From sequence record MT491208.1: a stretch of DNA of 62,537 nt; one strand, given 5' to 3'. A program made the position numbers and the translations under genes. The stretch comes from Pseudomonas phage vB_PaeM_USP_25. Shown here in pieces: positions 37,101-62,475 of this stretch (its first letter is position 1; every line of letters starts with the position of its first letter). The notes beneath the pieces are model-generated. The model was not told the origin of the DNA and searched no databases. It saw only the letters and a list, made by a program, of their open reading frames with translations.

Positions 37101-40100
37101 GGGCGATCCGCGCATTCTCCAGCGGGTCAAGCTCCAGAAGAAGCTGGAGAGCTTGCAGCGCAAGGAGCGCATGTACACGCAGGGCATCGCCGACATGCGC
37201 CGCCAGGCCCGCAACAGCAGCCAGGAGGCTGAGCGCCTGACCAAGGCGATTGAGAAGATCGAGCGCGAGGGGACGCTGGAAAGCATCGCCGGACTGATCA
37301 GCGCCCAGCAGCAGGCGTTTACCGCCACCATTGACGGCGCGACCTACGACAACCGCAAGGACGCCGCCGAGGCACTGCAAGCCTACGTCGAGGCGGAAAT
37401 GCGCGTGGGCGACAAGCCGCGCGATATCGGCACCTATGGCGACCAGGTGCTCAGCATCGAGTGGATGGGCTTCTCCGATTCGCCCACCACCACCATCAAG
37501 GCATTCGGCCAGCAGTTCGCCGGCAAGGGCATTGCGGGCGCCGAAGCCAAGATGCGCAACTACCCGAAGGTAGTGCAGGGCGATATCGAGCAGCGCAACG
37601 CCGCACTGGCCACCGCCGAGAATATGCGCGCCGCGATGCAACAGCCGTTCGGCCAGTCGGCCGACCTGGAGCGCGTAGCCAAGCAGCTGGACGACCTGGA
37701 GAAAGACCTGTCGCTCAACCCGGTGCCGCCGCCTGCCTGGCTACGCCAAGGGGCGCCCATCGACTCCGAGGTATTCCGCAGCAAGAAGCCGTACATCGTC
37801 ACCGGCCACCGCTACAGCAATGACGGCTGGTTCGTGATCGCCGAGGACGCCAAGGGCACAACCCTGATTCCGTACCTGGAAGCCACCGATAACGTCGGCA
37901 TGCCGCTGTACGACGAGCGCGAGTTCGTGGCGCCGGAAGTGGTAGCCAAGGGCGATGGCGCTTTGACTGAAGCCGACCGAGTGCCGGATCAGCCGAAATT
38001 CTCGTTCGCCGGTCGCGGTGCGCTGGGTGCCGATCTGCTGGCGCTGTCCACCGCGCAGCGCCGCATTGGCGCCGGGGAAGACGCTGAAACCGTCCGCCAG
38101 GAAACCGGCTGGCACCGTGGCGCCGATGGCAAATGGCGCTTCGAGATCAACGACAGCCAGGCCGACATCGCGGTTTCCGGCCGCACGGCAGGTGAGATCA
38201 TCGACATGGCGCACCTGGGCGCGCTGACCGATGGCCGCCAGCGCACCACCGTCGGCGACGTGCTGGACCACCCGCAACTGTTCGCCGCCTATCCGCGTCT
38301 GGCTGGCATCCCGATCAGCGTGACCCCGGAAGGCGTGACCGCACAGGCGCGACTGCGCCGCCTGGCCACCGGCTTCAAGATCGAGGTGCGCGCCGACATG
38401 CCGCGTGACCGCATGGCCTCGGCGCTGGTGCATGAGTTGCAGCACGGCATCCAGCTCGCCGAGCAGTTCGCCATAGGCGGTTCCAAGCAGGCGCTTATCA
38501 GCGACATGGACAAGACCGGCGCGGCAACCTACCGGCGCTTGGCCGGCGAGGTGGAGGCGCGCAACGCACAAACCCGCCTGCGCATGACCGACAAGATGCG
38601 CCGCGATATCGCCCCGGAGCTGACCGCCGACACGCCGGCCAGTGAGGTACTGGTGACGTTCAACGGCCGCGACATCGTGAACAGCCAGCCGCAGAACGCC
38701 ACCCGTCCAGCGATGACTGCCAAGAGCCTGGTGCGCGCCTTCGACGTGCAGTTCCCGAAACTCACCCCCGCACTGCGCAAGATGCTGGAGCGAGGCAAGG
38801 CTGGCCAGCGCGGCGGCGTGGTGGTGCTCGACAGCGCCGACCCGCTGCGCATCGCGCACGAGTTCGCCAGGAAGACCCGCACCGGCTTCCATGACGCGGT
38901 ACAGCTATTCTCCGAAGGCGGCCGGATCTACGCCTTCTATGACCCGAAGTCTGGCCTGACCTTCATGGTGGGGCCGAACCTGGACGCGGTGACGGCGCCG
39001 GCTGTGCTCTTGCACGAAATGACCCACGGCCAGCAGCGCAAGCGGCTCGACCAGGTAGCCATGGCCATGCTGACCAACCGTCGCAAGACCCGGAACGCCG
39101 ACCTTCGCGCCTTCCTGGACCGAGTGGCGGCGCGCATGGTGGACGCGGGCGAGACGGCCAACGCCGAAGAAGCGGCCGCCTACATCGTCGAGCAGGCTGT
39201 CATGGAAGGCCGCAGCCAAGGGTTTGCCGTGGCTGATAGCCGGTTCCTGAGCTGGGTAGACCAGACCATCGGCAAGCCGGTGGGCGATTTCCTGCGCAGC
39301 TTCCTGGGCATGGTTCGTAGTTGGATGCTGCGCAACGGTATGCCGGTGGGCGAAATCACCGTTGACGACCTGGTGGGCTACGCCATGGTGGGCATGGAGC
39401 GCGCCGCAGCGGGTCGCGTGGATGGTGGGAGCACGCTATTCAGTCGTGATGCCATCACCAACAGCGCAGCATTCAAGCGCTGGTTCGGTGACAGCAAGGT
39501 GGTGGATGCCGATGGCAAGCCGCTTGTTGTGTATCACGGCACCAGTGACGGCGGATTCACCGTGTTCGACAGTCGTGCTGCAAGCGACAGCGATGCAAGC
39601 CAGAACGCAGGCGATGCTGGTCTTGGATTCTTCTTCACCGAAGATAGGGCGCTTGCTGAACAACACCGAGATCGCCTTGACGGGGATCGGCCTTCCTGGG
39701 CGACTGCCAATAAGGAGGTATATGCCGTTTACTTGAGCCTGCAAAACCCGTTCGTTACGTCCGGCAACGTGACAGCAGAGCGGCGCGCAGAGCTTGAGAC
39801 GCAAGGCCACGATGGCGTGATCTATGACTTCGGTAGCTGGAAGGAATACGTCGCCTTCCGCCCCGAGCAGATCAAGTCCGCCATCGGCAACAGCGGCGAC
39901 TTCGATCCGGCAAACCGGGACATCCGTTTCAGCCGCTCCGGCGTCAAGGCTCTGGCCGACCGTGCAGCGCTGGAGCTGAACAACACATTCACCGCTCCCG
40001 GAAAACTGCACTGGTGGCACAAGACCATCGGCACCATGTACAACCTGGCCGAGCGCTCGCCGTTCTTCAAGCCGGTATTCGAGTCGGCCCAAGGGTTCAT

Positions 40101-42831
40101 CGACGACGTGGCGCACTACGCGGCCGACGCCGCCGAGCTGGCGCCCAAGCTGCTGCCGCGCCTGGAGACGTGGCGCGACATCGCCAAGTCGCCGATCAGC
40201 GCCGAGGACAACAAGGCCATTGCCAAGCCGATCTTCGAGGGCACACTCATGTGGACCCGCGACGAATCCGGCAAGCCTGTCCGCGTGCAATCGCTGGCCG
40301 ACGCTGCTGCCAACCTGACCGCCGACGAGAAGGCCGACATCCTGCTGGCGCAGGGCAAGATCCCGGAAGGGATGTTGAGAGCCTGGAAGGCGCTGCCGGC
40401 CGAGCAGTTCGAGAAGATGATCGACAGCCGCTACGAGTCGCAATTCCTCAAGCCTGGCATTGTCTGGACCGACGCCGAGCTGCGTTCGATCTTCCAGCTG
40501 AACGATACCCAAGTGGGCCTCTACCACGAGTTCCGCGACGCGACCAATCGCAGCCTGGACACCATGGCCAGGGCCGACCTGCTGCGCTTCGGTGGCGAGG
40601 ACGTGAAGGAGCTGCGTGACGCGGTGATGGATGCGGCCGACGTGCGCGAGGCGGCGATGCTGCTGCGCGACCACCTGGCGCAGATGGCTGATTCATGGCC
40701 GGACCGCGCGACCCAACTGCTGCAAACCGCGCACGGCATGATGGAGCGTGCCGACAAGGTGGCCGAGTTGCAGGCCGAGGGCTACGCGCCGCTGTCTCGC
40801 TTCGGCAAGTACACCGTGGACGTGGTGGAGGACGGCGAGCGCCAATACTTCGGGCTGTTCGAGACGAAGCGCGAAGCCAACCAGATGGCCGAGCAGATGC
40901 GCGCCGAGTTCGGCCAAGGCTCCGTGAGCCAAGGCACCCTGTCCGACGAATCGTTCAAGCTGTTCGCCGGTATCACGCCCGAGTCACTGGAGCTGTTCGG
41001 CAACATGCTGGGCCTCGACTCCACCGGAGATAGCGCGCAGGACCAGGCTTTCCAGGAGTACCTGCGCCTGACCAAGACCAACCGCAGCGCCATGCGCCGG
41101 CTGATCCACCGCAAGGGCATCGCCGGTTACAGCGAGGACGTGGGCCGCGTGTTGGCGTCGTTCGTCTACTCCAACGCCCGCCAGACCGCTGCCGGCCTGC
41201 ACATGGGCGACCTGGGCGATGCGGTGAACGCGATCCCGAAAGAGCAGGGCGAGCTGAAAGACGCCGCCGTGCGCCTGTCCGAGTACATCAAGAACCCGCA
41301 GGAGGAAGCGCAAGCCGTTCGCGGCCTGCTGTTCGCGCAGTACCTGGGCGGATCGGTGGCTTCGGCGTTCGTCAACATGACGCAGCCGTTCGCCGTGTCG
41401 TTCCCCTGGCTGACCCAGCACGGCGGCGCACGCAAAGCATCGTCCGAGCTGATCCGCGCCGCCAAACACATGAGCACCAAGGGCTACAGGTACGAGGCGG
41501 AACTGGCAGAGGCGCTCAAGAAGGCCGAGGACGACGGCGTTGTCAGCCCGCAAGAGGTTCATCAACTGATGGCGCAGGCTCGCGGTAGCGGATCGCTGCG
41601 GGCCGGTGACGGCACGCGCGCGGGTGAGGCAAGGGCGGCCGCCTCCAACGCGGTGGCGCGCCTGTCCGTGGCCTGGGGCAAGCTGTTCGGTGCAGCGGAG
41701 CAGATGAACCGCCGCGTGACCTTTATCGCCGCCTACCGGATCGCGAAGTCGCAGGGCATGCGCGATCCCGATGCGTTCGCGCGCCATGCCGTCACCGAAA
41801 CCCAGTTCGTCTACTCCAAAGCATCCAAGATGCAGTGGGGTCGCGGGGCCATCGGCGGCACGCTGATGACCTTCAAGACCTACTCCGTTGCCTACATGGA
41901 GCTGATGCACCGCCTGTGGAACCAGGGTCAACCTGGCTCGCAAGAGCGCAAGGAAGGCCGCAAGGCAGCGCTGCTGATGCTTGCCACGCTGATGCTGATG
42001 GGCGGGGCCGGTGGCTTGCCGTTCGCCGAGGACGTGGAAGACCTGATCGACGGCCTGGCGCAGCTCGCCGGCTACAACTTCTCCAGCAAGAAGGCCAAGG
42101 AGGAATTCTTGGCCAGCGTGTTCGGCGAGGAAATCGCGCAGTTCATCGACAAGGGCGTGAGCGGTCTACCGGGCGCGCCGCTGGACGTGTCCGGCCGCTT
42201 GGGTATGGGCAACCTGATCCCTGGCACCGGCCTGTTCCAGGAGCGCACCAGCCATACCCGCGACGTGCTGGAGGTGGCGGGGCCAATGGGCGACTTTGCC
42301 AACCGCATTGCCAGCGGCACGCGCAAGGTCCTGGGCGGTGATGTCGGCAGCGGCCTGCTGGAAATGTCGCCGGTTGCCGTGCGCAACGCCGCCAAGGGCG
42401 TGGACATGGCTGTCACTGGCATGTACCGCGACACCAAGGGCTACAAGGTGCTCGACACCAACGTCCTGGAAGCGGCATTGAAGTCGATTGGCTTTCAGCC
42501 GCAGAGCGTGGCACAGGTGCAGGAGGCCAACTGGCTCAACCAGCGCGCCAAGAACTTCTACAGCATGCGGGCGCAGGAGATCCGTTCGCTGTGGGCTACC
42601 GGCATCTTCGAGAAGGACGATGCCAAGGTGCAACGCGCGCGCGATGCCATCGCCGACTGGAACGCCAAGAACCCATCACAGCCCATGCTGATCCGTATCC
42701 CGGATGTCATGCGGCGCGTGCGGGAAATGTCGAAGACCAAGGACCAGCGCATCGCTGATACCGCGCCGAAGGCCATGCGCGTGCAGATGCGGGAGGACGT
42801 GGCGCGCCTGCGTTCAAGCATGGCGGATTAA
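28132..42831 (+). CDS. giant polyvalent virion protein (4899 aa): ParB/Srx-like nuclease, N6-adenine DNA methyltransferase, SNF2-family helicase, two HExxH domains, ART-like domain and C-terminal TM region (DarB-like anti-restriction candidate)
   Basis: single open frame of 14.7 kb. Motifs: ParB-like ...SVPRAEMPQIKAEH...LDGHHQWMA (about 30490..30830). MTase GTGNFY...GNWPFEN (about 32780..33900). Helicase GTGKTF, DEAH-type MILVDEAHEF and a helicase-C block (about 35100..36960). HELQH at 38431 and HEMTH at 39013. ART-like YHGT...EYVAF (about 39520..39930). TM segment near 41970..42030. Confidence 0.8.
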   Translation: MSDQKPWESFQDQGATADSDQKPWESFGGETKPEGKGVLGHVRDLGLSAAKSVIAVPETAVGLLDIPTGGRVGKFLENEDGMVGFRPRQAKEYLSDLHTDQYKAQQQQFQEAEGVLDKTGVALSNPSLIANTVTESIAPMLSGGVAARGILATTKLGQMGVKGAATAGALGEGAVMAGAQAEAIRQETDDGLLTPGQSGAAVATGALGSVFGYAGGRLAQKLGIGDVDTMLARGITPDQVAADLATAPAKSIPRQVIEGAISEGFFEELPQSVSEQIIQNLALDKEWSEGVDEAIVMGTLAGMAMGGPAAGFSALTRPAPAAGDAEAPAADATFEGTPEAPGPIPALPAPVYEAGPDGTIRTTDDMNAANQAARQAEADRLSRIARGEVTDVTPIPAAPLPSEQMGLNPDAGPMSTAAALAVDSGASQQLAGQAALQQAAEIAQQQAKGKGPQPRQGELIDNETGEIITTAQAEPVDRAAELKERINYIRNQARASGWDRHLVEAREAAEAELARLQPQAKAEDAARQVLATGGTEADATRAATDSLIGDMEKTPGISIAQDAPAAVAAAKQEPKAPTTVQEGIEQVRAEKAETPAAPADIKTVIAKQIPQMTDAELQQAVAHYGPEHKRTAKLNKELAKRGVQPSQQPTEIVDGEQAPQAQQAGTQRAQTPGAAAQAQPATADPAAGPVGPASRWDAMTPAERQAVAEKAGVKPVFAKNLPNAGWDRIGASVRAKLSEAMDPELTASLAESKAGAQELAARAAAYEASKAPKIEGRDIGDGWAEFAKESGTISVPRAEMPQIKAEHRGAMVNFLNARGIAHQEETVPAASLKPTQAEFSREKVAKAKAFEGGNRSILVSSDGHVLDGHHQWMASREKGEDVKVIRLDAPIRDLVQAAHEFPSSTTDQASGGATQTTTGPSTSQAVNDFIEGRRADAPTVQEVEREQAPADADPIGREIEKAKQRYMRVRREGDQTKTLAAETRLRKMRTAAIQADDWIEAALAGDQSAIAKLEEAGFADTADAVREQTAQPSTQEAPQAAAAPEAETKAKDADRFAGNKIFTADAVAAARARMKSKLGQLNSGIDPELMMDGMTIAGAYIESGVRDFAQYAAMMSEDFGDKIKPYLLSFWEAARNYPGVDKDGMTSAEESARLHADLLRPVIQAAKASTGVRQAAKEAGIAMAGTIHDWSSKASGQAKVKKAVVDSLLSENGLPENEIDGVMPLADEIYAEIRGLGDSAPAIGTVAEKPKARTRKTGARGDMVLTQDWGVEHIDGYGDSARETGNDTKDAFLKEARNYLNAVADALRAFGFEPHLDRKGKPEKPVSVNEGGPAGSGDVSLVMRNEDNGNNVYITIGDTALRGVVPSTPSGIALMYRVGPGTDRYAAKAGNTWGPVDLSANDLAALVNSRVRPAQENEVRDEQPANGAQDQGRAQEVRGGRGDSQPGTAPADSGDVAPRQPADGGQTGEAGASGRSGVRQPGANVASGEGVPQGRSSGDGRQGAGRAGASDAGTRAGRADGASDAAGSRSGDAATQPLTSPAGTAAQARDLHIENPLDIVGGTPVQRFNRNRAALELLQTLQEEGRQANADEQKVLAGYIGWGSFGQELFQGTWERPVYKDEGVWKERGEWLRDTLGESAWKSAQRSITNAHYTDPPTVMAMWDMVRRMGFEGGKVLEPSMGTGNFYSMMPADLKARSQLTGIELDETTGEIAKQLFPQSNVRIMGYQDSKTPDGFYDLIIGNWPFENTPVADRRYNKLNPMLHDYFFLKTMDQVRPGGIVIGITSAGSMDKQNTAIRRELAKQSELVASIRLPSGAFEEYAGTKVVTDIVILRKRPQRLVAVPNDATWVETGEYQTPSGQSVRVNRHYIDNPQHVIGTLDHGHGTTTFRAGMIVHRPENMAERLRQAVELVPQDIMTPRANTDHLTYYANETGERHGALAVVNGKLMVAMGDQLVEANEKSKYALKDAKKTADREQQLTAAVELRKRHTALVDAERAGHDGKAARKALRDAYQAFTKAHGPLRDSFAMTYLERIEDPFFAELAALENDDGTPAAVMQRSTTRGKRIIENPGVRDAYVLARNQSVNPSLAEVARISGKPEQDVKAELLDSGAVFEAPNGDIVPSDIYLSGNVREKMREAEAALAMGNQAMSVNIQALKDVMPEDVPYFNIETKLGATWVPNDAYKQFVAHMLARESTDGIEVSFRSGRWKVRVSTALNNSREAQANYGSAHVSFGRLVQAAMSNQVLRLTSKDRDGNDVYDAEKTEEANARIAKMREDFGTWLWSDPERRQDLEREYNETRNAWATPKYDGSFLTFEGMALTLGKGEFNLRQHQVNAIWRAIVNRRSLNAHEVGTGKTFTMGGIAVESRRYGIAKKPVILAHNANSATVAAEIRMMYPSARVLYVDNLQPKNRDIRLRQIANDDWDAIVIPHSLIDRLALREETLMQMAADDIAALEAEFYDAAAEDGVDVSKVDLDDDESIGKVRSVTAKELAKARKRIIENIKKQAQQASKEGAVTFEDLGIDMILVDEAHEFKKPPIVTRMQMKGLNTQVSGRSIALQFLTRYVRQMNNGGNVHTFTGTPITNTITEIYHQMRYVMESEMEQANVSDWDGWFGSFATEVQDVELSAAGDYEMVTRLAGFVNVPELRQMVGQYMDTVFADDMPEMQPRKVNGKQMGDELTEAERGQLLNGRTEGAMDRPYKKVVNASADMTERQQEIFRQLQQYAQDWRSASGKERRELMRSGDPRSPIVTEGIATKASFDVRLLDESLAGMEGKTQDDQNSKASRVVANTLEIYNSDPNANQVIFAEMGFSKTVRRTRTDANGDKTTTTHKVFSTIHDIVERLVQGGIPREQIAIVDGSTSKERRKEIAQAMNESRMRVVIGSTDTLGVGVNMQRNLRAMHHLDAPYMPGELEQRNGRGQRQGNQWNTVLEYRYMTDRLDGRRWQILAVKQRFINAFMKANNAARVIEGEAAADEQSDILESFSEAAGDPRILQRVKLQKKLESLQRKERMYTQGIADMRRQARNSSQEAERLTKAIEKIEREGTLESIAGLISAQQQAFTATIDGATYDNRKDAAEALQAYVEAEMRVGDKPRDIGTYGDQVLSIEWMGFSDSPTTTIKAFGQQFAGKGIAGAEAKMRNYPKVVQGDIEQRNAALATAENMRAAMQQPFGQSADLERVAKQLDDLEKDLSLNPVPPPAWLRQGAPIDSEVFRSKKPYIVTGHRYSNDGWFVIAEDAKGTTLIPYLEATDNVGMPLYDEREFVAPEVVAKGDGALTEADRVPDQPKFSFAGRGALGADLLALSTAQRRIGAGEDAETVRQETGWHRGADGKWRFEINDSQADIAVSGRTAGEIIDMAHLGALTDGRQRTTVGDVLDHPQLFAAYPRLAGIPISVTPEGVTAQARLRRLATGFKIEVRADMPRDRMASALVHELQHGIQLAEQFAIGGSKQALISDMDKTGAATYRRLAGEVEARNAQTRLRMTDKMRRDIAPELTADTPASEVLVTFNGRDIVNSQPQNATRPAMTAKSLVRAFDVQFPKLTPALRKMLERGKAGQRGGVVVLDSADPLRIAHEFARKTRTGFHDAVQLFSEGGRIYAFYDPKSGLTFMVGPNLDAVTAPAVLLHEMTHGQQRKRLDQVAMAMLTNRRKTRNADLRAFLDRVAARMVDAGETANAEEAAAYIVEQAVMEGRSQGFAVADSRFLSWVDQTIGKPVGDFLRSFLGMVRSWMLRNGMPVGEITVDDLVGYAMVGMERAAAGRVDGGSTLFSRDAITNSAAFKRWFGDSKVVDADGKPLVVYHGTSDGGFTVFDSRAASDSDASQNAGDAGLGFFFTEDRALAEQHRDRLDGDRPSWATANKEVYAVYLSLQNPFVTSGNVTAERRAELETQGHDGVIYDFGSWKEYVAFRPEQIKSAIGNSGDFDPANRDIRFSRSGVKALADRAALELNNTFTAPGKLHWWHKTIGTMYNLAERSPFFKPVFESAQGFIDDVAHYAADAAELAPKLLPRLETWRDIAKSPISAEDNKAIAKPIFEGTLMWTRDESGKPVRVQSLADAAANLTADEKADILLAQGKIPEGMLRAWKALPAEQFEKMIDSRYESQFLKPGIVWTDAELRSIFQLNDTQVGLYHEFRDATNRSLDTMARADLLRFGGEDVKELRDAVMDAADVREAAMLLRDHLAQMADSWPDRATQLLQTAHGMMERADKVAELQAEGYAPLSRFGKYTVDVVEDGERQYFGLFETKREANQMAEQMRAEFGQGSVSQGTLSDESFKLFAGITPESLELFGNMLGLDSTGDSAQDQAFQEYLRLTKTNRSAMRRLIHRKGIAGYSEDVGRVLASFVYSNARQTAAGLHMGDLGDAVNAIPKEQGELKDAAVRLSEYIKNPQEEAQAVRGLLFAQYLGGSVASAFVNMTQPFAVSFPWLTQHGGARKASSELIRAAKHMSTKGYRYEAELAEALKKAEDDGVVSPQEVHQLMAQARGSGSLRAGDGTRAGEARAAASNAVARLSVAWGKLFGAAEQMNRRVTFIAAYRIAKSQGMRDPDAFARHAVTETQFVYSKASKMQWGRGAIGGTLMTFKTYSVAYMELMHRLWNQGQPGSQERKEGRKAALLMLATLMLMGGAGGLPFAEDVEDLIDGLAQLAGYNFSSKKAKEEFLASVFGEEIAQFIDKGVSGLPGAPLDVSGRLGMGNLIPGTGLFQERTSHTRDVLEVAGPMGDFANRIASGTRKVLGGDVGSGLLEMSPVAVRNAAKGVDMAVTGMYRDTKGYKVLDTNVLEAALKSIGFQPQSVAQVQEANWLNQRAKNFYSMRAQEIRSLWATGIFEKDDAKVQRARDAIADWNAKNPSQPMLIRIPDVMRRVREMSKTKDQRIADTAPKAMRVQMREDVARLRSSMAD
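32393..32746 (+). CDS. alternative-frame ORF embedded in the giant gene (117 aa, helical and charged)
   Basis: frame has GC3 about 85% with typical codons and GAGG-N6-ATG; the giant-gene frame over the same 390 nt has GC3 about 40% and is G/S/R/A low-complexity; opens after TGA 32351..32353 and ends at TAA 32744..32746. Confidence 0.45.
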   Translation: MNNLQMALKIKAERKKYEAEEVIHNRELHQRILETWRRDSPQMAARLEKQGLLDDLAFVSQERMWRAAKAYRKGGLPVTDAREQAEREHLMLEPEQAEPMEPRMPQEAEAAMLPPSR

Positions 42832-42928
42832 TCCCCCTGTAGGGCTTGGTCATGCGCGGTGCATGGCCAAGACTCTCCCTCCAGCAGGGCGAGGCGTGTT
42901 GCCTCCCCGATTGGATGGAATTGCTCGC

Positions 42929-43180
42929 ATGGCAGACAAGGGTGCGGAAATCGCGATAGAGGTAGCGGGTGCATCCGTTGCCAACAAGGCCACCGCTGTA
43001 GGAGCAGCAACCGGCATCGCTGGCTGGGTGGCTCAGGTGAACTGGATCGGCTTGTCCGGCGTGCTTATTGCCATATTGGGCCTGCTGGTCAACTTCTACT
43101 TCCAGCACCGCAGAGACAAACGGGAAGCGGCTGAAAGCGCAGCACGCATCGAGGCCATCCAGGGCCGGTGCGACGTATGA
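42929..43180 (+). CDS. holin (candidate pinholin)
   Basis: 83-aa protein with two hydrophobic segments and a charged C-terminus, immediately upstream of the endolysin; overlapping stop/start. Confidence 0.6.
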   Translation: MADKGAEIAIEVAGASVANKATAVGAATGIAGWVAQVNWIGLSGVLIAILGLLVNFYFQHRRDKREAAESAARIEAIQGRCDV

Positions 43181-43707
43181 CCACGCGCAAGCGCATTGCG
43201 GCCGTTGCGCTGACCTTGAGCGTTTCCGGCTTTGGCGCCTGGAAGGTGAACGAAGGGTTCACTGAAACCGCGATGATTCCCACCAAGGGCGACGTACCCA
43301 CCATCGGCTACGGCTCGACCCGCTACGAAGACGGTACGCCCGTCACCCTGAACGATCCTCCCATCACGCCGCAGCGCGCAGAGCAGCTTGCCCGCAACCT
43401 GCATAGCGAGGAAGAACGCCGCTTTCGCGCGTCGATCCCTGGCGTGGAGCTGTTCCAGGAGGAATACGACCTCTATCTGGACTTCACCGGCAACTTCGGC
43501 ATTGGCAACTGGCGCGGCTCCAGCATGCGCCGGCACCTGCTGGCCGGTGACTACGTGAAGGCTTGTCATGCGCTGCTGATGTGGCGCAAGCAGGGCGGCC
43601 GGGACTGTTCCCTGCCGCAGAACTGGGGGCCGAAAGGCTGCAAAGGGGTTTGGACCCGACAACAGGAGCGCCATGCAAAGTGCATGGCCGCGCAGGTGAG
43701 CGAATGA
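43168..43707 (+). CDS. GH24 lysozyme-type endolysin with probable N-terminal SAR segment
   Basis: EGF(T)E...GDVPTIGYG(ST) catalytic region typical of P22 gp19/T4-type lysozymes; N-terminus RKRIAAVALTLSVSGFGAW is weakly hydrophobic and Gly/Ala/Ser-rich. Confidence 0.75.
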   Translation: MRRMTTRKRIAAVALTLSVSGFGAWKVNEGFTETAMIPTKGDVPTIGYGSTRYEDGTPVTLNDPPITPQRAEQLARNLHSEEERRFRASIPGVELFQEEYDLYLDFTGNFGIGNWRGSSMRRHLLAGDYVKACHALLMWRKQGGRDCSLPQNWGPKGCKGVWTRQQERHAKCMAAQVSE

Positions 43708-49471: not shown

Positions 49472-50157
49472 TGTTGTGGACCCTCCAGGGCGAGCAGGAC
49501 CTTGCGTTGCTCGTCGGTGAGCCGCGCCTTGCTTTCGATCATGCTGATGATGTTTTCCGGTGTGGTTTTCCCCTCGGCGACGCCCTTGCGGCGGGCCTCC
49601 AGGTTCTTGTCGAACAACTCCTGTGGGTAGATCGGCAGTTTGTTGTTTTCTGCCTCCTGGCCCTGGCCGCTGATTGCAGTCCTTTGGCCGCCTGTCCCTT
49701 GATCGCCGCCGTTCGCCCCCTGCGGTGGCTTAATGTCGTCCTCGTCGTCATCGGCCGCCAAGCACAGCAGTGCCGAGTAGGCATAGCGGCGCAGGTAGGT
49801 GATGAGCTTTCCGTAGTCCTGAACGCGGTCGTAGTTCGCCCTGGCGATCACCATCGTTGATCCGATGCTGGCGCCGGACTGGTGAATCAGCCGAGTCTCG
49901 ATGCTGCTGGCGCCGTCGGCGCCGGAGTTGATGAGCTGGACGACAGCCAGGCCGTTGGCAACCAAGTGAGGTCGAGTGGCCGTTATGAGTTGATCAAAGT
50001 CGGCGTACTTGAACTTTTGATTGCCTGTTTGTCCGTCGCGGTCCTTCTTGATTGGGGTGAATTCCCCCTGCGCCTTCGATAGCGCCGTATAAAGCTGCGC
50101 TATGGCGTCTGATTGGTCTTGCATGCTTCCTCCGGGCGAGCCTTGCGGCTCCTTCAT
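49468..50157 (-). CDS. erf: ERF-family single-strand annealing protein
   Basis: N-terminus LYTALSKAQGEFTPIKKDRDG...KFKYADFDQLITATRPHLVANGL typical of ERF. Confidence 0.65.
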   Translation of the reverse strand: MKEPQGSPGGSMQDQSDAIAQLYTALSKAQGEFTPIKKDRDGQTGNQKFKYADFDQLITATRPHLVANGLAVVQLINSGADGASSIETRLIHQSGASIGSTMVIARANYDRVQDYGKLITYLRRYAYSALLCLAADDDEDDIKPPQGANGGDQGTGGQRTAISGQGQEAENNKLPIYPQELFDKNLEARRKGVAEGKTTPENIISMIESKARLTDEQRKVLLALEGPQQ

Positions 50158-50181
50158 GGCATTTATTGGTCGCGCTCAGGC

Positions 50182-50238
50182 AATCCGCATTTGGAGTACC
50201 ATCGCCAGCGACGGATCGGAGTATTCCGCATACGGAGC
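50182..50238 (+). promoter_or_regulatory. left operator/promoter region (OL-like) with TCCG..CGGA half-site repeats
   Basis: AATCCGCATTTGGAGTA and palindromic TCGGAGTATTCCGCATACGGAGC between the leftward recombination operon and the rightward gene 50294. Confidence 0.45.
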
Positions 50239-50293
50239 GGCAAGTCAATCCGAAAACAGAACGAACCCGAAGGAATGTTGAGCAAAAAGGTGT

Positions 50294-50740
50294 GTGATGC
50301 GGTCGAGGATGGAGTTTGGGGTGTTCGATACGGTGGTCAGCGACGACGGGCTGGTCGAAGTGGTCGCGCGTGACCTGGTGACACCCGAGGCGTTCATGGC
50401 AGCGGCGGCGCTGCACTGGGTAGCGAGGGGCGGGCAAAAAGCCGCAGATGCCTTCGTTGCTATCAGGATCGACCTGACGGCCGCTTATCCAGCCGATAGC
50501 AGCCGGTCGCTCAGGGAGGGCTGGCCCGGCAAGTTTTCCCCACCACGGTTCATCCGCGAACTGCCGACGGCCATCGTGGCGCCGGAGCGGGTGTTACATC
50601 ACATCCAGGAGTACGCGCGGGAATGCGCGGAGCAGGGTGCGGTGGTGGGGGCGTTTACGAGTTCGCGCGATGCCGCCGAGTGGGCGATGGAGCGGGGGCG
50701 TGCTCTTGCTGCGCAGCGGGTCCGCCTCCGAATGAAATGA
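50294..50740 (+). CDS. hypothetical protein between OL and repressor gene (candidate lysogeny-expressed moron)
   Basis: 148-aa ORF with coding-like composition; convergent with and overlapping the 3' end of the repressor gene. Confidence 0.4.
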   Translation: MMRSRMEFGVFDTVVSDDGLVEVVARDLVTPEAFMAAAALHWVARGGQKAADAFVAIRIDLTAAYPADSSRSLREGWPGKFSPPRFIRELPTAIVAPERVLHHIQEYARECAEQGAVVGAFTSSRDAAEWAMERGRALAAQRVRLRMK

Positions 50741-51077
50741 CCTGCGAGGCCACGGCGTAGGCGCGTCGCTGGAGCTGCGGATCTTCAATCCGATCCAGCT
50801 GGCGCGCCAGATCCAGCGCAAGCGGGCTGGGTGCGCTCTTGGAAGGCTCCAGTACCTCGGGCGGACACAAGAGCTGCCACGCCTGAACGCCAAGGGCGCT
50901 CGCCACCTTCTCCAGAACGTCTACGCCGATGCTGGTGTCGGCGGACTTCATTCGCGCGACGGTGGCAACGCCGACCTTCGCCTCCCGCGCCAGCCTGTTC
51001 TGATTCTCAGCCCCCCACTGAGCCAGCATGAGAGCCTGGATTCGTGGCCAGAGCGTGCTGCGTGTGTTTTCGGTCAT
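50655..51077 (-). CDS. cI-like repressor (XRE-family HTH)
   Basis: HTH ...NQNRLAREAKVGVATVARMKSADTSIGVDVLEKVASALGV; divergent from the Cro-like gene across an operator-rich spacer. Confidence 0.7.
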   Translation of the reverse strand: MTENTRSTLWPRIQALMLAQWGAENQNRLAREAKVGVATVARMKSADTSIGVDVLEKVASALGVQAWQLLCPPEVLEPSKSAPSPLALDLARQLDRIEDPQLQRRAYAVASQVISFGGGPAAQQEHAPAPSPTRRHRANS

Positions 51078-51122: not shown

Positions 51123-51178
51123 CCGGATACGGAATAGCGTTACGAATACGGATTGACCAGCCATTTCGGATATGGAAT
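51123..51178 (+). promoter_or_regulatory. right operator region (OR-like), three CGGAtAyGGAat repeats
   Basis: CCGGATACGGAAT (51123), ACGAATACGGATT (51142), TTCGGATATGGAAT (51165) in the repressor/Cro intergenic region. Confidence 0.55.
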
Positions 51179-51220
51179 GATGCGCCAAACAAACGCACTC
51201 CATAGAGAGAGAAATGAAGA

Positions 51221-51457
51221 ATGGCAATCACGATCCCTCCGCTGGCGCTGATACGCACCCGCCTGGAGGCCATGAAGCAAGCACAAATCAAAAGCCTGGC
51301 AAAGGACTCCGGCGTCCCCTTCGGGACACTGATGAAGATTCGCCACGGCATCACCAAGAACCCCGGCATCGAGACGGTGCGCGCCTTCTTTCCGCTGCTG
51401 CCGGACCTGCCGGGGCGCGGCGATTCTCCTAAGAGGCGCCACGATGATTCCGTTTAA
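51221..51457 (+). CDS. Cro-like regulator
   Basis: 78-aa protein divergent from the repressor; ...DSGVPFGTLMKIRHGITKNP HTH-like. Confidence 0.6.
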   Translation: MAITIPPLALIRTRLEAMKQAQIKSLAKDSGVPFGTLMKIRHGITKNPGIETVRAFFPLLPDLPGRGDSPKRRHDDSV

Positions 51458-52644: not shown

Positions 52645-53133
52645 ATGAAAAGATCCAACACGGACATCGTTCTGGAGGCCATCCAGGACCTGCATGCACA
52701 GGAGCAGATCGTTACGCGCGAGACGCTGGCTGATACGACGGGGCTAAAGCTGACGGTTATCGACGACCGCGTGTCGCACCTGATCGACTGCGGCCAGGTT
52801 CACCGCGTACAGCGGGGCGTCTTCGTGCCGGCGCCCGAGCACAAGCCGGCGCGCATCATCACCAAGACGATCCTTCCGGGCGGCACCGTGAGCATCGAGA
52901 TCGGAGACGACCATGTGCTAACCCTGACGCCGCGCGAGAACCGCATGCTGGCCGAGCTGATGGCCGGCGCCGCGCAGCAGTACGCGAGCATCGAGAGCGG
53001 GCACCAGGCCGCCCACATGGCCGGCGAGCTGAACTTGCAGCTCAAGCAGCTACGACAGGAACTCAAGGCGGTATGCGTCAAGCTGGCTTCGCAGGAGGTC
53101 GCTGGCGACCTGGAGGCGGCCAGCAATGCCTAA
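52645..53133 (+). CDS. hypothetical protein, possible winged-helix regulator
   Basis: 162-aa ORF; N-terminal region EAIQDLHAQEQIVTRETLADTTGL is wHTH-like. Confidence 0.4.
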   Translation: MKRSNTDIVLEAIQDLHAQEQIVTRETLADTTGLKLTVIDDRVSHLIDCGQVHRVQRGVFVPAPEHKPARIITKTILPGGTVSIEIGDDHVLTLTPRENRMLAELMAGAAQQYASIESGHQAAHMAGELNLQLKQLRQELKAVCVKLASQEVAGDLEAASNA

Positions 53134-55000: not shown

Positions 55001-55026
55001 TCGGACAACTGGTCGAATTCTGGCCT

Positions 55027-55056
55027 TGTAATAAGGTCGGATGCCGGCCTAAGCTG
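55027..55056 (+). promoter_or_regulatory. sigma70-like promoter TTGTAA-N18-TAAGCT with palindromic GGTCGGATGCCGGCC spacer (family copy a)
   Basis: 37 nt upstream of the Rha/KilAC gene; the spacer palindrome is shared with copies at 56500 and 61752. Confidence 0.5.
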
Positions 55057-55092
55057 CGCACAGAAGAAGAACCACCAGCAGAGGGTAAGTAT

Positions 55093-55758
55093 GTGAGCCA
55101 GTTACAGAATATCGGCGTCACCATGTCCAGCGTCGAGATTGCCGAGTTGGTCGGCTCCCGGCATGACAAGGTGAAGCAGAGCATCGAGCGCTTGGCGAAA
55201 CGCGGCGCTATTGGACTCCCCCCAATGGGGGAAGTTCGGAATCACTTGGGGCAGCTGGTCGCCGAGTACCGGATCGGCAAGCGTGACAGCTACGTGATCG
55301 TGGCGCAGTTGTCGCCGGAGTTCACCGCGCGTCTGGTGGACCGATGGCAGGAGCTGGAGGCCGGATTGGTGCCGCAATCCTTTGCGCAGGCGCTGCGACT
55401 GGCCGCTGACCAGCAGGAGCGCATCGAGCAGCAGGCGCAGGCGCTGGCGCTGGCCCAGCCCAAGGTCGAGTTCGTCGATCGCTACGTCGAAGGGAGCGGC
55501 TTGAAGGGGTTCCGCCAGGTGGCCAAGCTGCTGCGCGCCAACGAAAGCCGCTTTCGCGAGTTCCTGCGCGACCGGGGCATCATGTACCGCTTAGGCGGTG
55601 AGTGGATGCCCTACCAGCAGCACATCGACGCCGGCCGCTTTGAGGTTAAGACCGGCGCGGGCGAGAACGACCATGTGTTCAACCAGGCAAAGTTCACCCC
55701 AAAGGGTGTGGCCTGGATTTCCGATCTGTGGCAGGAGCGCGAGGTGGCGCATGGCTAA
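55093..55758 (+). CDS. Rha-family N-terminal / KilAC C-terminal antirepressor
   Basis: N-terminus ...SSVEIAELVGSRHDKVKQSIERL (Rha-like); C-terminal KilA-C-like domain. Confidence 0.6.
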   Translation: MSQLQNIGVTMSSVEIAELVGSRHDKVKQSIERLAKRGAIGLPPMGEVRNHLGQLVAEYRIGKRDSYVIVAQLSPEFTARLVDRWQELEAGLVPQSFAQALRLAADQQERIEQQAQALALAQPKVEFVDRYVEGSGLKGFRQVAKLLRANESRFREFLRDRGIMYRLGGEWMPYQQHIDAGRFEVKTGAGENDHVFNQAKFTPKGVAWISDLWQEREVAHG

Positions 55759-56041
55759 GTCGAACGCGCAGAAGTGCCGCGAGTACCGCAAGCGCCAGGG
55801 CAAGGCGATCAGCCTGCCCATGCCGCCAGCCACGGAGCAGGCTCTTTCCGACCTGATGGCCTGGCACGACTTCGAGGACCAGCGCGAAGCTGTGGCCACC
55901 ATGATTCACCGCTTGCACGAGCTGGGACCGGAAGGCTCTGCCGCGATGCTGGCGGTGAAGGCGCACCGATACGAGCCTAGCGACGAGATAGTCACGCGCC
56001 TGTTCGTCGAGGGCGCGCGCTCGCACGGTGACGACCGATGA
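55751..56041 (+). CDS. hypothetical protein (96 aa)
   Basis: ATG overlapping the upstream gene end; coding-like. Confidence 0.4.
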   Translation: MAKSNAQKCREYRKRQGKAISLPMPPATEQALSDLMAWHDFEDQREAVATMIHRLHELGPEGSAAMLAVKAHRYEPSDEIVTRLFVEGARSHGDDR

Positions 56042-56286
56042 AGTGGACACGCGCCGGCATGCACGCCGAGTCGAGCGACACGATCCCGCCTTATGTCGTG
56101 ACGCGATACCGCATCGAAGGGGTAGCGCAGTTTCGCCCGAGCTTCAAAGGCGAGTTCCTGACATTCCCGGTCCCCACCGCAAAAGAGGCTAAAGCAATCT
56201 GTGAACGACATCATTCGATCAACCAGGAAGCGAGGAACGCCAGTGACGAAAAAGAGCCTGCCGGACGCGAAGCGACACCGGCCTGA
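56038..56286 (+). CDS. hypothetical protein (82 aa)
   Basis: ATGA overlap; coding-like. Confidence 0.4.
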   Translation: MKWTRAGMHAESSDTIPPYVVTRYRIEGVAQFRPSFKGEFLTFPVPTAKEAKAICERHHSINQEARNASDEKEPAGREATPA

Positions 56287-56467
56287 CCCGCAGTACACCG
56301 CTGAGCTGGTGGAGCTGGCCAAGCAGCGCGCCGGCCTCAGCAGTCAGGCCGCCGTGGCGGAAAGAATCGGCGTGGGCCTATCCACGTTAAAGGACTGGAA
56401 AAGCGGCACGGCGAGCATGAGCTATCCCGACCAATACGCCCTTGAGCGGCTGGCCGGAGTGGTATGA
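56201..56467 (+). CDS. small HTH protein (start uncertain)
   Basis: C-terminal ...SQAAVAERIGVGLSTLKDWKSG is an XRE-like HTH; overlaps the upstream ORF. Confidence 0.35.
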   Translation: MNDIIRSTRKRGTPVTKKSLPDAKRHRPDPQYTAELVELAKQRAGLSSQAAVAERIGVGLSTLKDWKSGTASMSYPDQYALERLAGVV

Positions 56468-56499: not shown

Positions 56500-56529
56500 T
56501 TGCATATAGGCCGGTATCCGGCCTATTCT
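56500..56529 (+). promoter_or_regulatory. sigma70-like promoter TTGCAT-N18-TATTCT with GGCCGGTATCCGGCC spacer palindrome (family copy b)
   Basis: about 50 nt upstream of gene 56581; AT-rich upstream region. Confidence 0.55.
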
Positions 56530-56580
56530 GTGCGCGACACATAGAGACGGCGATCAACGCCGCAGTAGAGGGAGACACCC

Positions 56581-57066
56581 ATGATCGACGAACGCGCATA
56601 CAGCGCCGAGAAGCTAGTCGCGCCTGCGCCACTTCCGGTGGTCAGCCGCCGCGCCCTGAAGCGCATCAAACACCCCGCACCGATCCCGACCACCTGCAAC
56701 TGCTGCGGCGGACATCGTGTGGCGCTGGTCGAGAACAGCGAGATTTACCACGGCCGCAGCTACGGCGAATGGCCGTATGCCTACCTGTGCCGCGACTGTG
56801 GCGCCTATGTCGGCCTGCATCCCGTCACTGACATCCCGCTGGGCACCTTGGCAGACAAGCCGCTGCGCGATGCGCGCAACGCCTGCAAGCGCCCGTTTGA
56901 AATGATCTGGCGCAATGGCGCGATGACCCGCAAGGAAGCCTATGCCTGGCTGGCCAAGGGTCTCGGCCTCACTGCCGATGAATGCCACTTCGGCCTGTTC
57001 GACATCGAGCGCTGCCAGCGCGCCCGCGACCTGTGCAACGACTACCTGGAGGCTCGCCATGCGTAA
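56581..57066 (+). CDS. DUF3268-like zinc-finger protein
   Basis: CNCCGG...CRDCGAYVG...ACKRPFE...ECHFGLFDIERCQ Cys-rich pattern found in phage DUF3268 proteins. Confidence 0.5.
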   Translation: MIDERAYSAEKLVAPAPLPVVSRRALKRIKHPAPIPTTCNCCGGHRVALVENSEIYHGRSYGEWPYAYLCRDCGAYVGLHPVTDIPLGTLADKPLRDARNACKRPFEMIWRNGAMTRKEAYAWLAKGLGLTADECHFGLFDIERCQRARDLCNDYLEARHA

Positions 57067-57578: not shown

Positions 57579-57596
57579 GCGGACTGTAGGTAGGTA

Positions 57597-57983
57597 ATGC
57601 GTATTCACTGCCGCTGCCGTGACTGTCGCAAGCGCACTACCCTGGCGCGGAACCCCGAGGAATACCGCGTCAGGAGCGTTTGCCACAACAAGCGCTGCAA
57701 GGCGCCTAACCCTACAGGTAGTGATCGCTGCTACGAGTGCCGCGCTGATCTCTACCTTGGGCCAAGGTGTGAGGGCTGCGGTGGCCGCCTCCGACTGGAC
57801 AAGGACGCCAACGCAAGGCCGTGGCGCAAGCAGCCAGTTTGCTACTGCGACGGCCACTGGTGGAGCGCCAAGGGGGCGCCCCATCGTCGCGGCAGCGGGC
57901 AGTGCGTCTACAACGAAAAGCTCTACGTCGAGAGCGAGCCAGGGGAGAACGATGCGCCGCAATCCGAATACCTGGCGTTTTGA
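57597..57983 (+). CDS. Cys-rich zinc-ribbon protein (128 aa)
   Basis: multiple CxxC pairs (CRCRDCRK, CHNKRC, CYECR, CEGCGG, CYCDGHWW). Confidence 0.45.
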   Translation: MRIHCRCRDCRKRTTLARNPEEYRVRSVCHNKRCKAPNPTGSDRCYECRADLYLGPRCEGCGGRLRLDKDANARPWRKQPVCYCDGHWWSAKGAPHRRGSGQCVYNEKLYVESEPGENDAPQSEYLAF

Positions 57984-58122
57984 TCTGGACCCGCGCGACC
58001 CTGACTACCTGGAGCCGCCCGAGCAGGTCGAAGACGACCAGGAACCCGAAGAAGACTGGCCAGCCGCCGACGATCCGCGCGGCGATGGGCCTTACCACTA
58101 CATCCCGCCCTACGAGCCGTAG
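57952..58122 (+). CDS. small acidic protein (56 aa)
   Basis: coding-like ORF overlapping the upstream gene end. Confidence 0.3.
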   Translation: MRRNPNTWRFDLDPRDPDYLEPPEQVEDDQEPEEDWPAADDPRGDGPYHYIPPYEP

Positions 58123-61622: not shown

Positions 61623-61751
61623 TCCGCCCCACTTACTGCCGCACCAGCGGAAGGCGCATCGAGCAATGCAAGTGCTACCGCTGTTCCCCGGCGCCGAAAC
61701 CCAAGGCCAAACCGAATAAGGAATAAAAGCGACGAACGGTCATTCCGGCTA

Positions 61752-61781
61752 TTGCAATGCGGCCGGAATCCGGCCTATTGT
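61752..61781 (+). promoter_or_regulatory. sigma70-like promoter TTGCAA-N18-TATTGT with GGCCGGAATCCGGCC spacer palindrome (family copy c)
   Basis: 36 nt upstream of gene 61817; same architecture as copies a and b. Confidence 0.55.
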
Positions 61782-61816: not shown

Positions 61817-61993
61817 ATGGCAGGTCTATCAAGGGAGTACGCAGCTTACAAGCTCCGCTTTTGCGTGCGGCTCGCCAGGGAGGCGTCGTATGCGTCCTGG
61901 CAGGAGCTGGAGAGCCAGCGCAACGAGTACAGACGCATCCGTCGCGAGGCAATGCAGGATGCGCGTTACTGGCGCGACAAGCTCACCGCATAA
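61817..61993 (+). CDS. hypothetical protein (58 aa)
   Basis: AAGGGGG RBS before ATG; preceded by the promoter at 61752. Confidence 0.4.
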   Translation: MAGLSREYAAYKLRFCVRLAREASYASWQELESQRNEYRRIRREAMQDARYWRDKLTA

Positions 61994-62082: not shown

Positions 62083-62475
62083 ATGAAGAAAGAAGACCTG
62101 CCCCTGTACCACGTCGCGCTCGGTCGCGCGCTGCTGGTGGTGGCCGAGTTCCCGGACACCGAGGAAGGCGCCAAGCAGGCGAACGCCTACATGGAAGCGC
62201 ACCCAGGCATCGGCGTACTGGAGGCGAGGAACGGCCGCGTGATCCTGGCCAGCAACGAGGACAAGGGCGTCAAGCTGGACGGCCCCGTTCGCGGCCTGAC
62301 TTGCACCTGCTGCGGCTCCTACTTGAAGGGGCGCCAGTTCCACAACCAGGACACCGGCTACGGCCTGTGCAATGACTGCATCGACTACTGCGGTCGCCAC
62401 TTCGACGCAGACCAGTTCCAGCGCACCTATGGCCTGCGCGGCGCCCACTACGACATCCAGGAGCTGCCGGCATGA
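62083..62475 (+). CDS. hypothetical Cys-rich protein (130 aa)
   Basis: AGGAAG RBS; C-terminal CTCCGS...CNDCIDYCGRH zinc-binding-like pattern. Confidence 0.45.
   Translation: MKKEDLPLYHVALGRALLVVAEFPDTEEGAKQANAYMEAHPGIGVLEARNGRVILASNEDKGVKLDGPVRGLTCTCCGSYLKGRQFHNQDTGYGLCNDCIDYCGRHFDADQFQRTYGLRGAHYDIQELPA

Follow-up and report, generated by a model that had tools for sequence, protein, structure and literature searches.

A diverged Aca1-like protein as the probable repressor of three promoters with a spacer dyad in Pseudomonas phage vB_PaeM_USP_25

In the right arm of Pseudomonas phage vB_PaeM_USP_25 (MT491208.1), three promoters, here called a, b and c, carry a G+C-rich dyad between their -35 and -10 boxes. 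Which protein reads this dyad, and what kind of circuit do the three promoters form? The whole stretch analysed (62,537 nucleotides) is referred to as the window. The compared 8.5 kb of it are 100% identical to Pseudomonas phage vB_PaeM_USP_18 (MT491207.1); the label USP18 is used below for the phage of this window, and labels of the type L0xx denote the metagenomic or prophage relative loci that were compared. Right-arm positions in the window are obtained by subtracting 453 from those of the MT491207.1 record. Among sequenced phages, P. stutzeri phage 8P (MT152150) comes closest, with 88.6% identity across 56% of the right arm. Our answer is that a, b and c are probably sigma-70 promoters of the acr (anti-CRISPR) type, shut down by a dimer of the Aca1-like protein g51 (Aca, anti-CRISPR-associated), which would act on its own operon and on two more. 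The conservation of the motif, the homology and fold of g51, colinearity with the acr promoter of phage JBD30 and the co-variation of operator arms with g51 carry this reading, from which DNA binding, repression and the start sites of transcription are predicted.

The promoters and operators are the following.
55026-55055, plus strand: promoter a, with the -35 box TTGTAA (55026-55031), then taa, GGTCGGATGCCGGCC and the -10 box TAAGCT (55050-55055).
55035-55049, plus strand: operator a, GGTCGGATGCCGGCC, with one T.G position within the dyad.
56500-56529, plus strand: promoter b, directly after g51, with the -35 box TTGCAT, then ata, GGCCGGTATCCGGCC and the -10 box TATTCT (56524-56529).
56509-56523, plus strand: operator b, GGCCGGTATCCGGCC.
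61752-61781, plus strand: promoter c, with the -35 box TTGCAA, then tgc, GGCCGGAATCCGGCC and the -10 box TATTGT (61776-61781).
61761-61775, plus strand: operator c, GGCCGGAATCCGGCC.

Common to the three copies is the form TTGnAn-N18-TAnnnT, in which a 15-bp dyad GGyCGG-N3-CCGGCC touches the -10 box. In copy b, the dyad extends to ATAGGCCGG-TAT-CCGGCCTAT (56506-56526). All copies are intergenic: they occupy the few larger gaps in a dense block of plus-strand genes, and the start codon follows the last base of the -10 box at a distance of 37 nt (a), 51 nt (b) and 35 nt (c). An earlier note, made from the letters of this DNA, had placed the promoters at 55027, 56500 and 61752, some 35-50 nt upstream of plus-strand genes. 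All three are present on the plus strand, and the distances hold (35-51 nt as measured); only copy a was set one base late, its start being 55026. The consensus string given there for the spacer was one base too long, the dyad having 15 nt (6-3-6). A shared downstream word, C/GTGYGC, could not be retained: it is out of register in copy a, and relatives differ (GGCGAC, TTCCCT and GGGCAC in 8P).

The motif is scarce. When up to three mismatches (<=3) to a degenerate 30-nt pattern are allowed, a, b and c are the sole matches, and 100 dinucleotide-preserving shuffles yielded none. The remaining 46.5 kb of the phage record contain no copy, so that the genome-wide search, a check named in the earlier note, gave nothing beyond the three. 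With the consensus, the USP18 hexamers agree at only 8 of 12 positions; a simple promoter scan missed them for this reason. Sequence collections were scanned with a version of the motif that has 18 specified bases. There were no matches in IMG/VR, 17 scattered single matches in genomes (596 Gb) and 14 singles in metagenomes, among which L031 is the only true relative. A similar frequency in unrelated high-GC genomes had been named as evidence against a regulatory role; only chance-level singles turned up, and conservation was found in 8P and in metagenomic relatives. The motif is not a general trait of G+C-rich DNA.

The gene directly upstream of promoter b encodes the proposed regulator.
56243-56467, plus strand: g51, 74 aa, a helix-turn-helix (HTH) protein of the Aca1 family, the last gene of the promoter a operon (g48-g49-g50-g51).
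A profile built from eight g51 orthologues and compared with PDB sequences matched Aca1 (7VJN, 7C0G, 7FA3; E = 1.5e-6, residues 6-71), and BLASTP aligned g51 with JBD30 Aca1 at 37% identity (E = 9e-10). The AlphaFold2 (AF2) model of g51 has a predicted local distance difference test (pLDDT) value of 82 and helices at residues 16-30, 35-42, 46-54 and 61-71. When it was compared with the PDB by Foldseek, the top six matches were all Aca1 (template modelling (TM) score 0.73-0.79, root-mean-square deviation 1.6-2.0 A). The signature motifs PDAxxHxPDPxY and YPxQ(Y/F)ALExLA are common to g51 and Aca1, and the predicted recognition helix of g51 comprises residues 46-54 (LSTLKDWKS). In every relative, g51 lies directly 5' of the b-type promoter. 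Among the HTH candidates listed earlier (at 52645, 56201 and 59505), the one at 56201 is g51, singled out as an Aca1 homologue by profile, BLASTP and fold; it is most likely the cognate regulator of the dyads. A g51-like match in phage TC7 was uninformative.

Aca1 is an anti-CRISPR-associated repressor that binds inverted repeat 2 (IR2) of the acrIF1-aca1 promoter and silences this otherwise strong promoter (PMC8633003; PMC9410906). When bound to DNA, the protomers recognise one GGCAC half-site each, and the 3 nt between the half-sites are not contacted (PMC8633003). As read from the record, the JBD30 acrIF1 promoter consists of inverted repeat 1 (IR1) GGCACACTGTGCC, TA, TTGCGA, atta, IR2 GGCACAATGTGCC and TAATCT, followed by a leader hairpin and the start codon. 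It aligns colinearly with a, b and c. The JBD30 acr-aca1 system (PDB 7VJM, 7VJN, 7C0G, 7FA3) resembles the present one in several respects: a small homologous HTH protein is encoded by the last gene of the operon, and an inverted repeat with a 3-nt A/T centre lies in the sigma-70 spacer, where it touches the -10 box. A/T flanks lengthen the dyad to 9-3-9 (ATTAGGCAC..GTGCCTAAT in JBD30, ATAGGCCGG..CCGGCCTAT in copy b). An optional second repeat, degenerate in the present promoters, is joined to the -35 box via TA-TTG, and most leaders have a hairpin. The junction of IR1 and the -35 box reads GTGCC-TA-TTGCGA in JBD30 and CCGGC-TA-TTGCAA in copy c.

There are also clear differences from JBD30. 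The arms are GGCCGG rather than (A)GGCAC, and the spacer has 18 rather than 17 nt. Loop 3-4 of g51 is five residues shorter, and all five published base- or G-contacting residues are changed. Three promoters are spread across 6.7 kb, one of them 3' of the aca gene, whereas JBD30 has one promoter. The cargo consists of Rha/KilAC, DUF3268 and unassigned proteins and not of a known Acr. Finally, the phage is a 63-kb phage of lambdoid layout, whereas JBD30 is a Mu-like Casadabanvirus. The GGCAC-N3-GTGCC operator is absent from the window, and the exact dyad string was not found in the literature searched. The missing canonical operator and the changed contact residues point to a diverged specificity class rather than canonical Aca1, as judged from sequence.

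A counterpart of IR1 can be proposed as well.
55011-55025, plus strand: degenerate second dyad of promoter a, GGTCGAATTCTGGCC, which adjoins the -35 box; a weak match, with 2 of 12 arm positions mismatched against the consensus.
61731-61751, plus strand: region 5' of promoter c, with the 9-mer GACGAACGG (61731-61739) and an IR1 remnant ..ATTCCGGCTA adjoining the -35 box.
Degenerate second dyads adjoin the -35 box of further a-type promoters, again as weak matches (GGTCGCATCCCGGCC in 8P, L002 9020-9034; GGTCGATATGCGCCC in L051). Promoter c retains only a half-site remnant of the upstream repeat, and promoter b has none. IR1 has been reported in ~40% of acr-aca1 operons (PMC13551039), and the second dyad of a-type promoters probably corresponds to it.

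The 9-mer GACGAACGG lies 12-13 nt 5' of the -35 box, both in USP18 c and in the majority of the relatives' b-type copies. It occurs at L002 10651-10659 (8P b) and L043 ~2244-2252, and in L053, L078, L080 and L081; GACGGACGG in L049/50 has one mismatch, and L079 has GACGAGCGG. In the alignment, its place is that of the flank together with the first bases of the left arm of IR1 (GACAAGCGG in JBD30), and it persists in copies whose remaining IR1 is degenerate. Read on the opposite strand, the 9-mer is identical to CCGTTCGTC, the core binding site of AlgR (PMC4064291).

How well is the dyad conserved beyond this phage? Three syntenic copies of the motif are present in 8P, and several metagenomic relatives hold sites at the same positions; further copies were located via g49 and g51 homologues in short metagenomic contigs. 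Fifteen promoter copies were aligned, including the JBD30 acr promoter. Invariant over all of them are TTG of the -35 box, part of the dyad and A2 of the -10 box. T1 and T6 of the -10 box are near-invariant, the exception being the JBD30 row, which is one base out of register; the A of TTGnA is common to the phage copies but not to the JBD30 row as aligned. Otherwise the hexamers drift (TTGTAA, TTGCAT, TTGAAA and TTGAAG at -35; TAAGCT, TATTCT, TATGCT, TAGCAT and TATCAT at -10). As this drift keeps the key sigma-70 positions, it was taken as the signature of working sigma-70 promoters. The spacer has 18 bp, or 17 in 8P a.

The usual dyad of relatives is GGCCGG-N3-CCGGCC. It is GG(C/T)CGC-AAT-GCGGCC in L053 and L078 and GGCCAA-TAA-TTGGCT in L043-45. 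The 3-nt centre is A/T-rich and freely variable (ATG, TAT, AAT, AAA, ATT, TAA). In the 15-copy alignment, dyad pairing is kept in 96.7% of cells, with symmetric double changes at four of the six positions, and the covariation score was reached by none of 500 shuffles. This covariation shows selection for dyad symmetry; alone, it cannot separate a protein operator from a hairpin.

The contact residues of Aca1 are not conserved in g51, and its specificity is therefore argued from co-variation. Three combinations of arm and protein were found.
Arm GGCCGG: g51 residue 51 is D (USP18, 8P, L031, L081) or E (L049/50, L079/80), with no Arg in loop 3-4.
Arm GGCCGC/GCGGCC: g51 residue 51 is Q, with an Arg in loop 3-4 (SGR), in L053, L078 and L051 (left arm of the a-type site).
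Arm GGCCAA/TTGGCT: g51 residue 51 is Y, with no Arg in loop 3-4, in L043.
Residue 51 aligns with Aca1 Y48, and the loop Arg stands one residue N-terminal of the R59-aligned position. Y51 accompanies A:T at the next-to-innermost position, and the loop Arg accompanies the innermost C:G. This fits the contacts in the JBD30 complex, in which Y48 packs on the thymine methyl of A:T at the next-to-innermost position and R59 (loop 3-4) makes a bond to G in the innermost C:G pair (PMC8633003). The loss of R44 coincides with a change from G to C at the R44 position. In L051, which is of the Q type, the left arm of the a-type site is GGCCGC, as against GG(T/A)CGG in D-type phages; thus, two sites within one genome seem to change in step.

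Distant Aca1-like loci in IMG/VR served as a positive control. The same geometry was found seven times, 270-820 nt 5' of the aca gene, with the arms GGCAC (twice), GGCAA, GGTAA, GGCGA, GGCTC and ACATAC. At the Y48 position, Y always goes with A as the next-to-innermost base, S with G and A with T.

Several observations weigh against g51 as the repressor of these promoters. Five Aca1 contact residues (R44, V45, R47, Y48, R59), described as strictly conserved in phage homologues, are replaced in g51 by S, T, K, D and A; the alignment by hidden Markov model and the AF2 helix boundaries agree in placing g51 S47, T48, K50, D51 and W52 opposite Aca1 R44, V45, R47, Y48 and Y49, and A57 aligns approximately with R59. 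The co-variation rests on two independent changes of arm type within close relatives, and phylogeny confounds the counts; moreover, the half-site register between g51 and JBD30 was assumed to be centre-aligned, with alignment on GGC as an alternative. No phage examined has a perfect a-type operator. L043 is without an a-type promoter, and the Ant promoter of L049 (804-862; TTGAAA-N18-TAGCAT, spacer CCAGCCGTGTGAAGAACC) is without a dyad. From these two exceptions, autoregulation is not universal. The cargo genes of the three operons match no known Acr and no PDB chain. The b and c operons are long, that of b having ~5 kb and a beta-clamp-like gene, unlike typical acr operons. To these come two points that are compatible with an RNA-level role: several b-type copies have a T-run after the stem and -10 box, such as TATTCTTTTTTG in L081, and the single-arm deviations of b and c copies are all G.U-compatible on the plus strand.

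The latter two belong to the most serious rival, in which the dyad is mainly an RNA hairpin in read-through transcripts (a weak terminator, a 3'-end stabiliser or a protein site on RNA) that overlaps a promoter for restart. The RNA of the dyads folds stably (-21 to -22 kcal/mol with flanks; z = -3.3 to -3.7 for b and c), copy c, the only copy to pass a simple terminator scan, was flagged as terminator-like, and RNA hairpin binding has been demonstrated for Aca1 and Aca2 (PMC13551039). The bases after the stem are, however, conserved as T-A-n-n-n-T with A2 in all copies, which is a -10 signature and not a U-tract, and the tails of copy a and 8P c are not U-rich. The a-type copies retain the dyad despite A.G, C.A and C.C mismatches, which are incompatible with an intact stem of 6 bp. 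Furthermore, the arm changes track residues of the adjacent DNA-binding protein, and the homologous element of JBD30 is a proven DNA operator. Overall, an element that works mainly as RNA is quite improbable.

The deviations that change a single arm and keep dyad pairing are found at L043 position 15, L049 position 10, L078 position 3 and L079 position 15, all in b copies, and at window position 55037 (USP18 copy a, position 3). All five are C-to-T on the plus strand and thereby G.U-compatible in RNA; the equally likely G-to-A change occurs in none. Four out of four G.U-compatible changes correspond to p ~0.06 only. The five events are only suggestive of an RNA-level role or a strand-specific mutation bias.

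The dyad-free Ant promoter of L049 was compared with window positions 55001-55092; the b-type promoter on the same contig does have the dyad. The operator thus behaves like an accessory element that an individual promoter may lose. In another mode of action, g51 bound in the spacer would be an activator of the MerR kind that realigns a G+C-rich spacer of excessive length, so that the operons would be delayed-early or middle. The spacer of 18 bp is one above the optimum and G+C-rich, and the USP18 hexamers, as said, agree with the consensus at only 8 of 12 positions; in L043, g51 is expressed only from upstream transcription and could act forward on promoter b. MerR-type promoters have spacers of 19-20 bp and are served by proteins of the MerR family. 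The spacers here have 17-18 bp, and the regulator is an HTH protein of the Xre/Aca1 type and not of the MerR type. The L049 Ant promoter keeps TTGAAA-N18-TAGCAT without the dyad, and this promoter can therefore do without the protein. In JBD30, where the geometry is the same and the spacer has 17 bp, Aca1 is a proven repressor, and all ten Aca families tested act as repressors (PMC9410906). Activation by g51 is extremely unlikely.

Could the dyad be the operator of some other protein? Candidates are g45 (at 52645), g58 (at 59505), g49, cI, Cro or a host factor, in an arrangement similar to P22 immI. In P22, the space between the -35 and -10 boxes of the strong Pant promoter is occupied by a repressor, dimeric or tetrameric, whose gene belongs to the operon that it represses, as does an antirepressor-type gene. 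The analogy with Arc is apt as to this binding position, and g49 has a strand-helix-helix pattern by eye. Against such a regulator, g58 and Ant are absent from 8P, which keeps all three operators. Homologues of g49 occur in motif-free prophages, its putative strand does not track the arm type, and no Arc, Mnt or ribbon-helix-helix (RHH) match was obtained from Pfam or the PDB; in Pfam, this holds for the 20 right-arm proteins scanned. On these grounds, g49 as an Arc-like RHH repressor was rejected. The same applies to g50, which is absent from L043, a locus that retains the module. If a host factor were the regulator, the joint change of arm types and a phage protein would be left without an explanation. 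Taken together, another protein is given very little weight.

For cI and Cro, the operators of the immunity region are informative. Three CGGATACGGAAT-type 12-mers at 51124, 51143 and 51167 lie between the cI-like and cro-like genes. They are direct repeats of a different design, so that the dyad motif is indeed unrelated to the cI operators, as had been stated. The word CGGAT is common to cI/Cro operators and some dyad centres; a shared specificity via this word was refuted by the centre AAA of L050 and by the different design of the immunity operators. All three 12-mers are nearly identical in 8P, where the third differs by one base, and a PR-like promoter (TTGACC-N17-AATGAT, 51153-51181) has the third in its spacer.

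Hairpin promoters of the N4 type, used by a virion RNA polymerase, had also been considered in view of the 6-bp stem, the 3-nt loop and a giant virion gene. They were dropped because of the sigma-70-constrained drift of the hexamers, the lambdoid cI/Cro layout and the Aca1 homology.

An RNA motif of Aca1 may nevertheless be present further downstream. Aca1 and Aca2 bind RNA hairpins, and an Aca1 RNA motif resides in acr-aca1 leaders (PMC13551039). Most leaders in the set compared here have a small hairpin ~15-25 nt after the -10 box, among them the following.
56548-56562, plus strand: leader hairpin of the b operon, CGGCG-AUCAA-CGCCG, in the 5' untranslated region.
Most b-type leaders have the form CGGCG-loop-CGCCG, with whole-leader z = -3.0 for USP18 b (48 nt, including a second small hairpin) and -3.9 for 8P b. 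The a-type leaders of 8P and L051 have a GCCC-N4-GGGC hairpin. The USP18 a leader has no convincing hairpin, and Rfam had no matching family for the leader hairpins. They are positioned as the Aca1 RNA motif is, but their shape is unlike the two-stem motif of JBD30; the leader hairpins are consistent with an Aca1-type RNA motif.

With g51 as the probable repressor, the following circuit can be proposed. The promoters would fire upon infection. As g51 accumulates, it would bind the dyad as a dimer, one recognition helix per arm, ATAGGCCGGTATCCGGCCTAT being the predicted target. The bound dimer would block RNA polymerase between the -35 and -10 boxes. In this way, its own operon (a) would be damped, and so would b, which is directly 3' of g51, and c, 5 kb further. 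In USP18, 8P and L051, promoter a heads an operon with the aca-like gene last, and the circuit would be autoregulatory in all three. This agrees with the earlier proposal that the spacer dyad is the operator of a dimeric repressor in sigma-70-type promoters of three operons; the proposal appears to be borne out by the comparative evidence and by an Aca1 homologue with the same architecture.

It had further been proposed that a second circuit thereby controls the antirepressor. Promoter a does head the Rha/KilAC operon. The link appears incidental, since ParB-N takes this place in 8P and the Ant promoter of L049 is free of the dyad. The closest known system is the JBD30 acr-aca1 promoter and not P22 Mnt/Arc, which had been named as an example; Arc and Mnt are RHH proteins, and g51 has an HTH. 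P22 immI is alike in its working mode (a spacer-bound repressor, acting on its own operon, with an antirepressor-type gene) and different in that the module studied here does not regularly include the Ant gene.

C proteins of restriction-modification systems with their C-boxes are another comparison. They are small HTH dimers of the Xre type that bind short dyads with a 3-nt A/T centre at their own promoter, and C.AhdI, C.Kpn2I and C.BclI are among the weaker fold matches of g51 (TM score 0.50-0.60). There is, however, no restriction-modification system here, and C proteins activate and repress via two adjacent boxes.

Closer are the Aca systems with several operons. For Aca1 and Aca2, control of up to three neighbouring operons by one Aca was predicted, with cargo that is mostly unannotated and possibly anti-defence (PMC13551039). 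Regulation of several operons was demonstrated for Aca14 (Feussner et al., NAR 2026; PMC13551039), and elsewhere for Aca11 and Aca13. Shared features are motifs before the own and neighbouring operons, variable unannotated cargo and leader hairpins; the long operons in the early right arm, 5' of the packaging genes, are a difference. The circuit is of a known kind, in a diverged new instance; it is no new kind of regulation.

The genes behind the promoters are listed here.
55093-55758, plus strand: g48, Rha + KilAC 'antirepressor' (Pfam), first gene after promoter a.
55751-56041, plus strand: g49, in the operon of promoter a.
56038-56286, plus strand: g50, in the operon of promoter a.
56581-57066, plus strand: g52, DUF3268 zinc-finger protein, first gene of the b operon.
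61817-61993, plus strand: g64, 58 aa, first gene of the c operon.
62083-62475, plus strand: g65, 130 aa, in the c operon.
These agree with the downstream genes named earlier: Pfam gives Rha + KilAC after a and DUF3268 after b, and the open reading frame (ORF) at 61817 after c has 58 codons' worth of protein (58 aa). The genes g48-g50 sit where acr genes sit in canonical acr-aca1 operons, and no match to a known Acr was obtained for them in Pfam, PHROGs, NCBIfam or PDB sequences. The first gene is swapped behind each promoter. After a, it is Rha/KilAC in USP18 and ParB-N in 8P; after b, it is DUF3268 or one of several unrelated ORFs of 52-83 aa among relatives; after c, it is g64 in USP18 and 8P_055 in 8P. 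DUF3268 homologues in IMG/VR have no motif upstream, and hence DUF3268 is not tied to the motif. An anti-defence role of the cargo is a lead only.

Some relatives show further peculiarities. Homologues of g49, for which neither Pfam nor the PDB gave a match, share the N-terminus MAKSNAQKCR.YR and the core REA.ATMIHRLHE.G. In the unrelated prophages L046, L047 and L048, a g49 homologue is located at the prophage end by the integrase gene, and in two of the three it is directly followed by an AlpA-type gene; these prophages have neither an Aca1-like gene nor the motif. L041 (68% g49 identity, 44% g51 identity) has another repeated promoter-like motif, ..AATAGTCCA.., which is not a dyad. Long non-coding stretches lie 3' of the first genes of the b-type operon in L043 (4477-5559) and L041 (1743-2395). 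The L043 stretch has an internal duplication (GGCGGTATATCCAG.., GATGCAGATGAATGCGCAG and CCGGCCATCTGCATCAC, twice each) and looks structured; it may be an RNA element.

The phage has a lambdoid layout: structural and lysis genes, an integrase, a leftward recombination operon, cI/cro and a long rightward block that extends up to the packaging genes.
50655-51029, minus strand: cI-like gene, facing the cro-like gene.
51221-51457: cro-like gene, facing the cI-like gene.
A gap of ~530 bp (50125-50654) between the ERF recombinase and cI-like genes is unannotated in USP18 and 8P and could house a small gene or RNA. The 374-bp 'intergenic' gap after g54 (57579-57951) is covered by the ORFs 57597-57983 and 57619-58122, the latter having the same stop as annotated g55, and 8P annotates additional genes at its counterpart; probably, either the annotation lacks a gene here or g55 extends beyond its annotated form. 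One gene of ~14.8 kb (~4,900 aa; about 27987-42830, record 28440-43283) is annotated as hypothetical, and its 8P counterpart of 15.4 kb is called a structural protein. Transcription or promoter data were not found in the literature on USP_18 and 8P.

A more far-reaching version of the circuit can be formulated. The three operons would form a regulon of ~7.5 kb with swapped first-gene cassettes that encode new anti-CRISPR or anti-defence proteins, and the palindrome would have a second function: in read-through transcripts, g51 would also bind it as a hairpin. A dual role on DNA and RNA, if true, would explain the G.U-compatible arm deviations of the b and c copies on the coding strand. In its entirety, this version is unlikely.

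With g51 as the candidate repressor, three anonymous promoters become a recognisable control module of the acr type. The series of arms (GGCCGG, GGCCGC and GGCCAA, and the distant GGCAC, GGCGA, GGCTC and others), paired with changes at the Y48 position and in loop 3-4, is a test set for specificity shifts of Aca1-type proteins. By guilt of association, g48-g50, g52-g54, g64-g65 and their 8P replacements are candidates for anti-CRISPR or anti-defence proteins. They are encoded by a phage that has been studied for the control of P. aeruginosa biofilms and also carries an integrase and a cI-like repressor.

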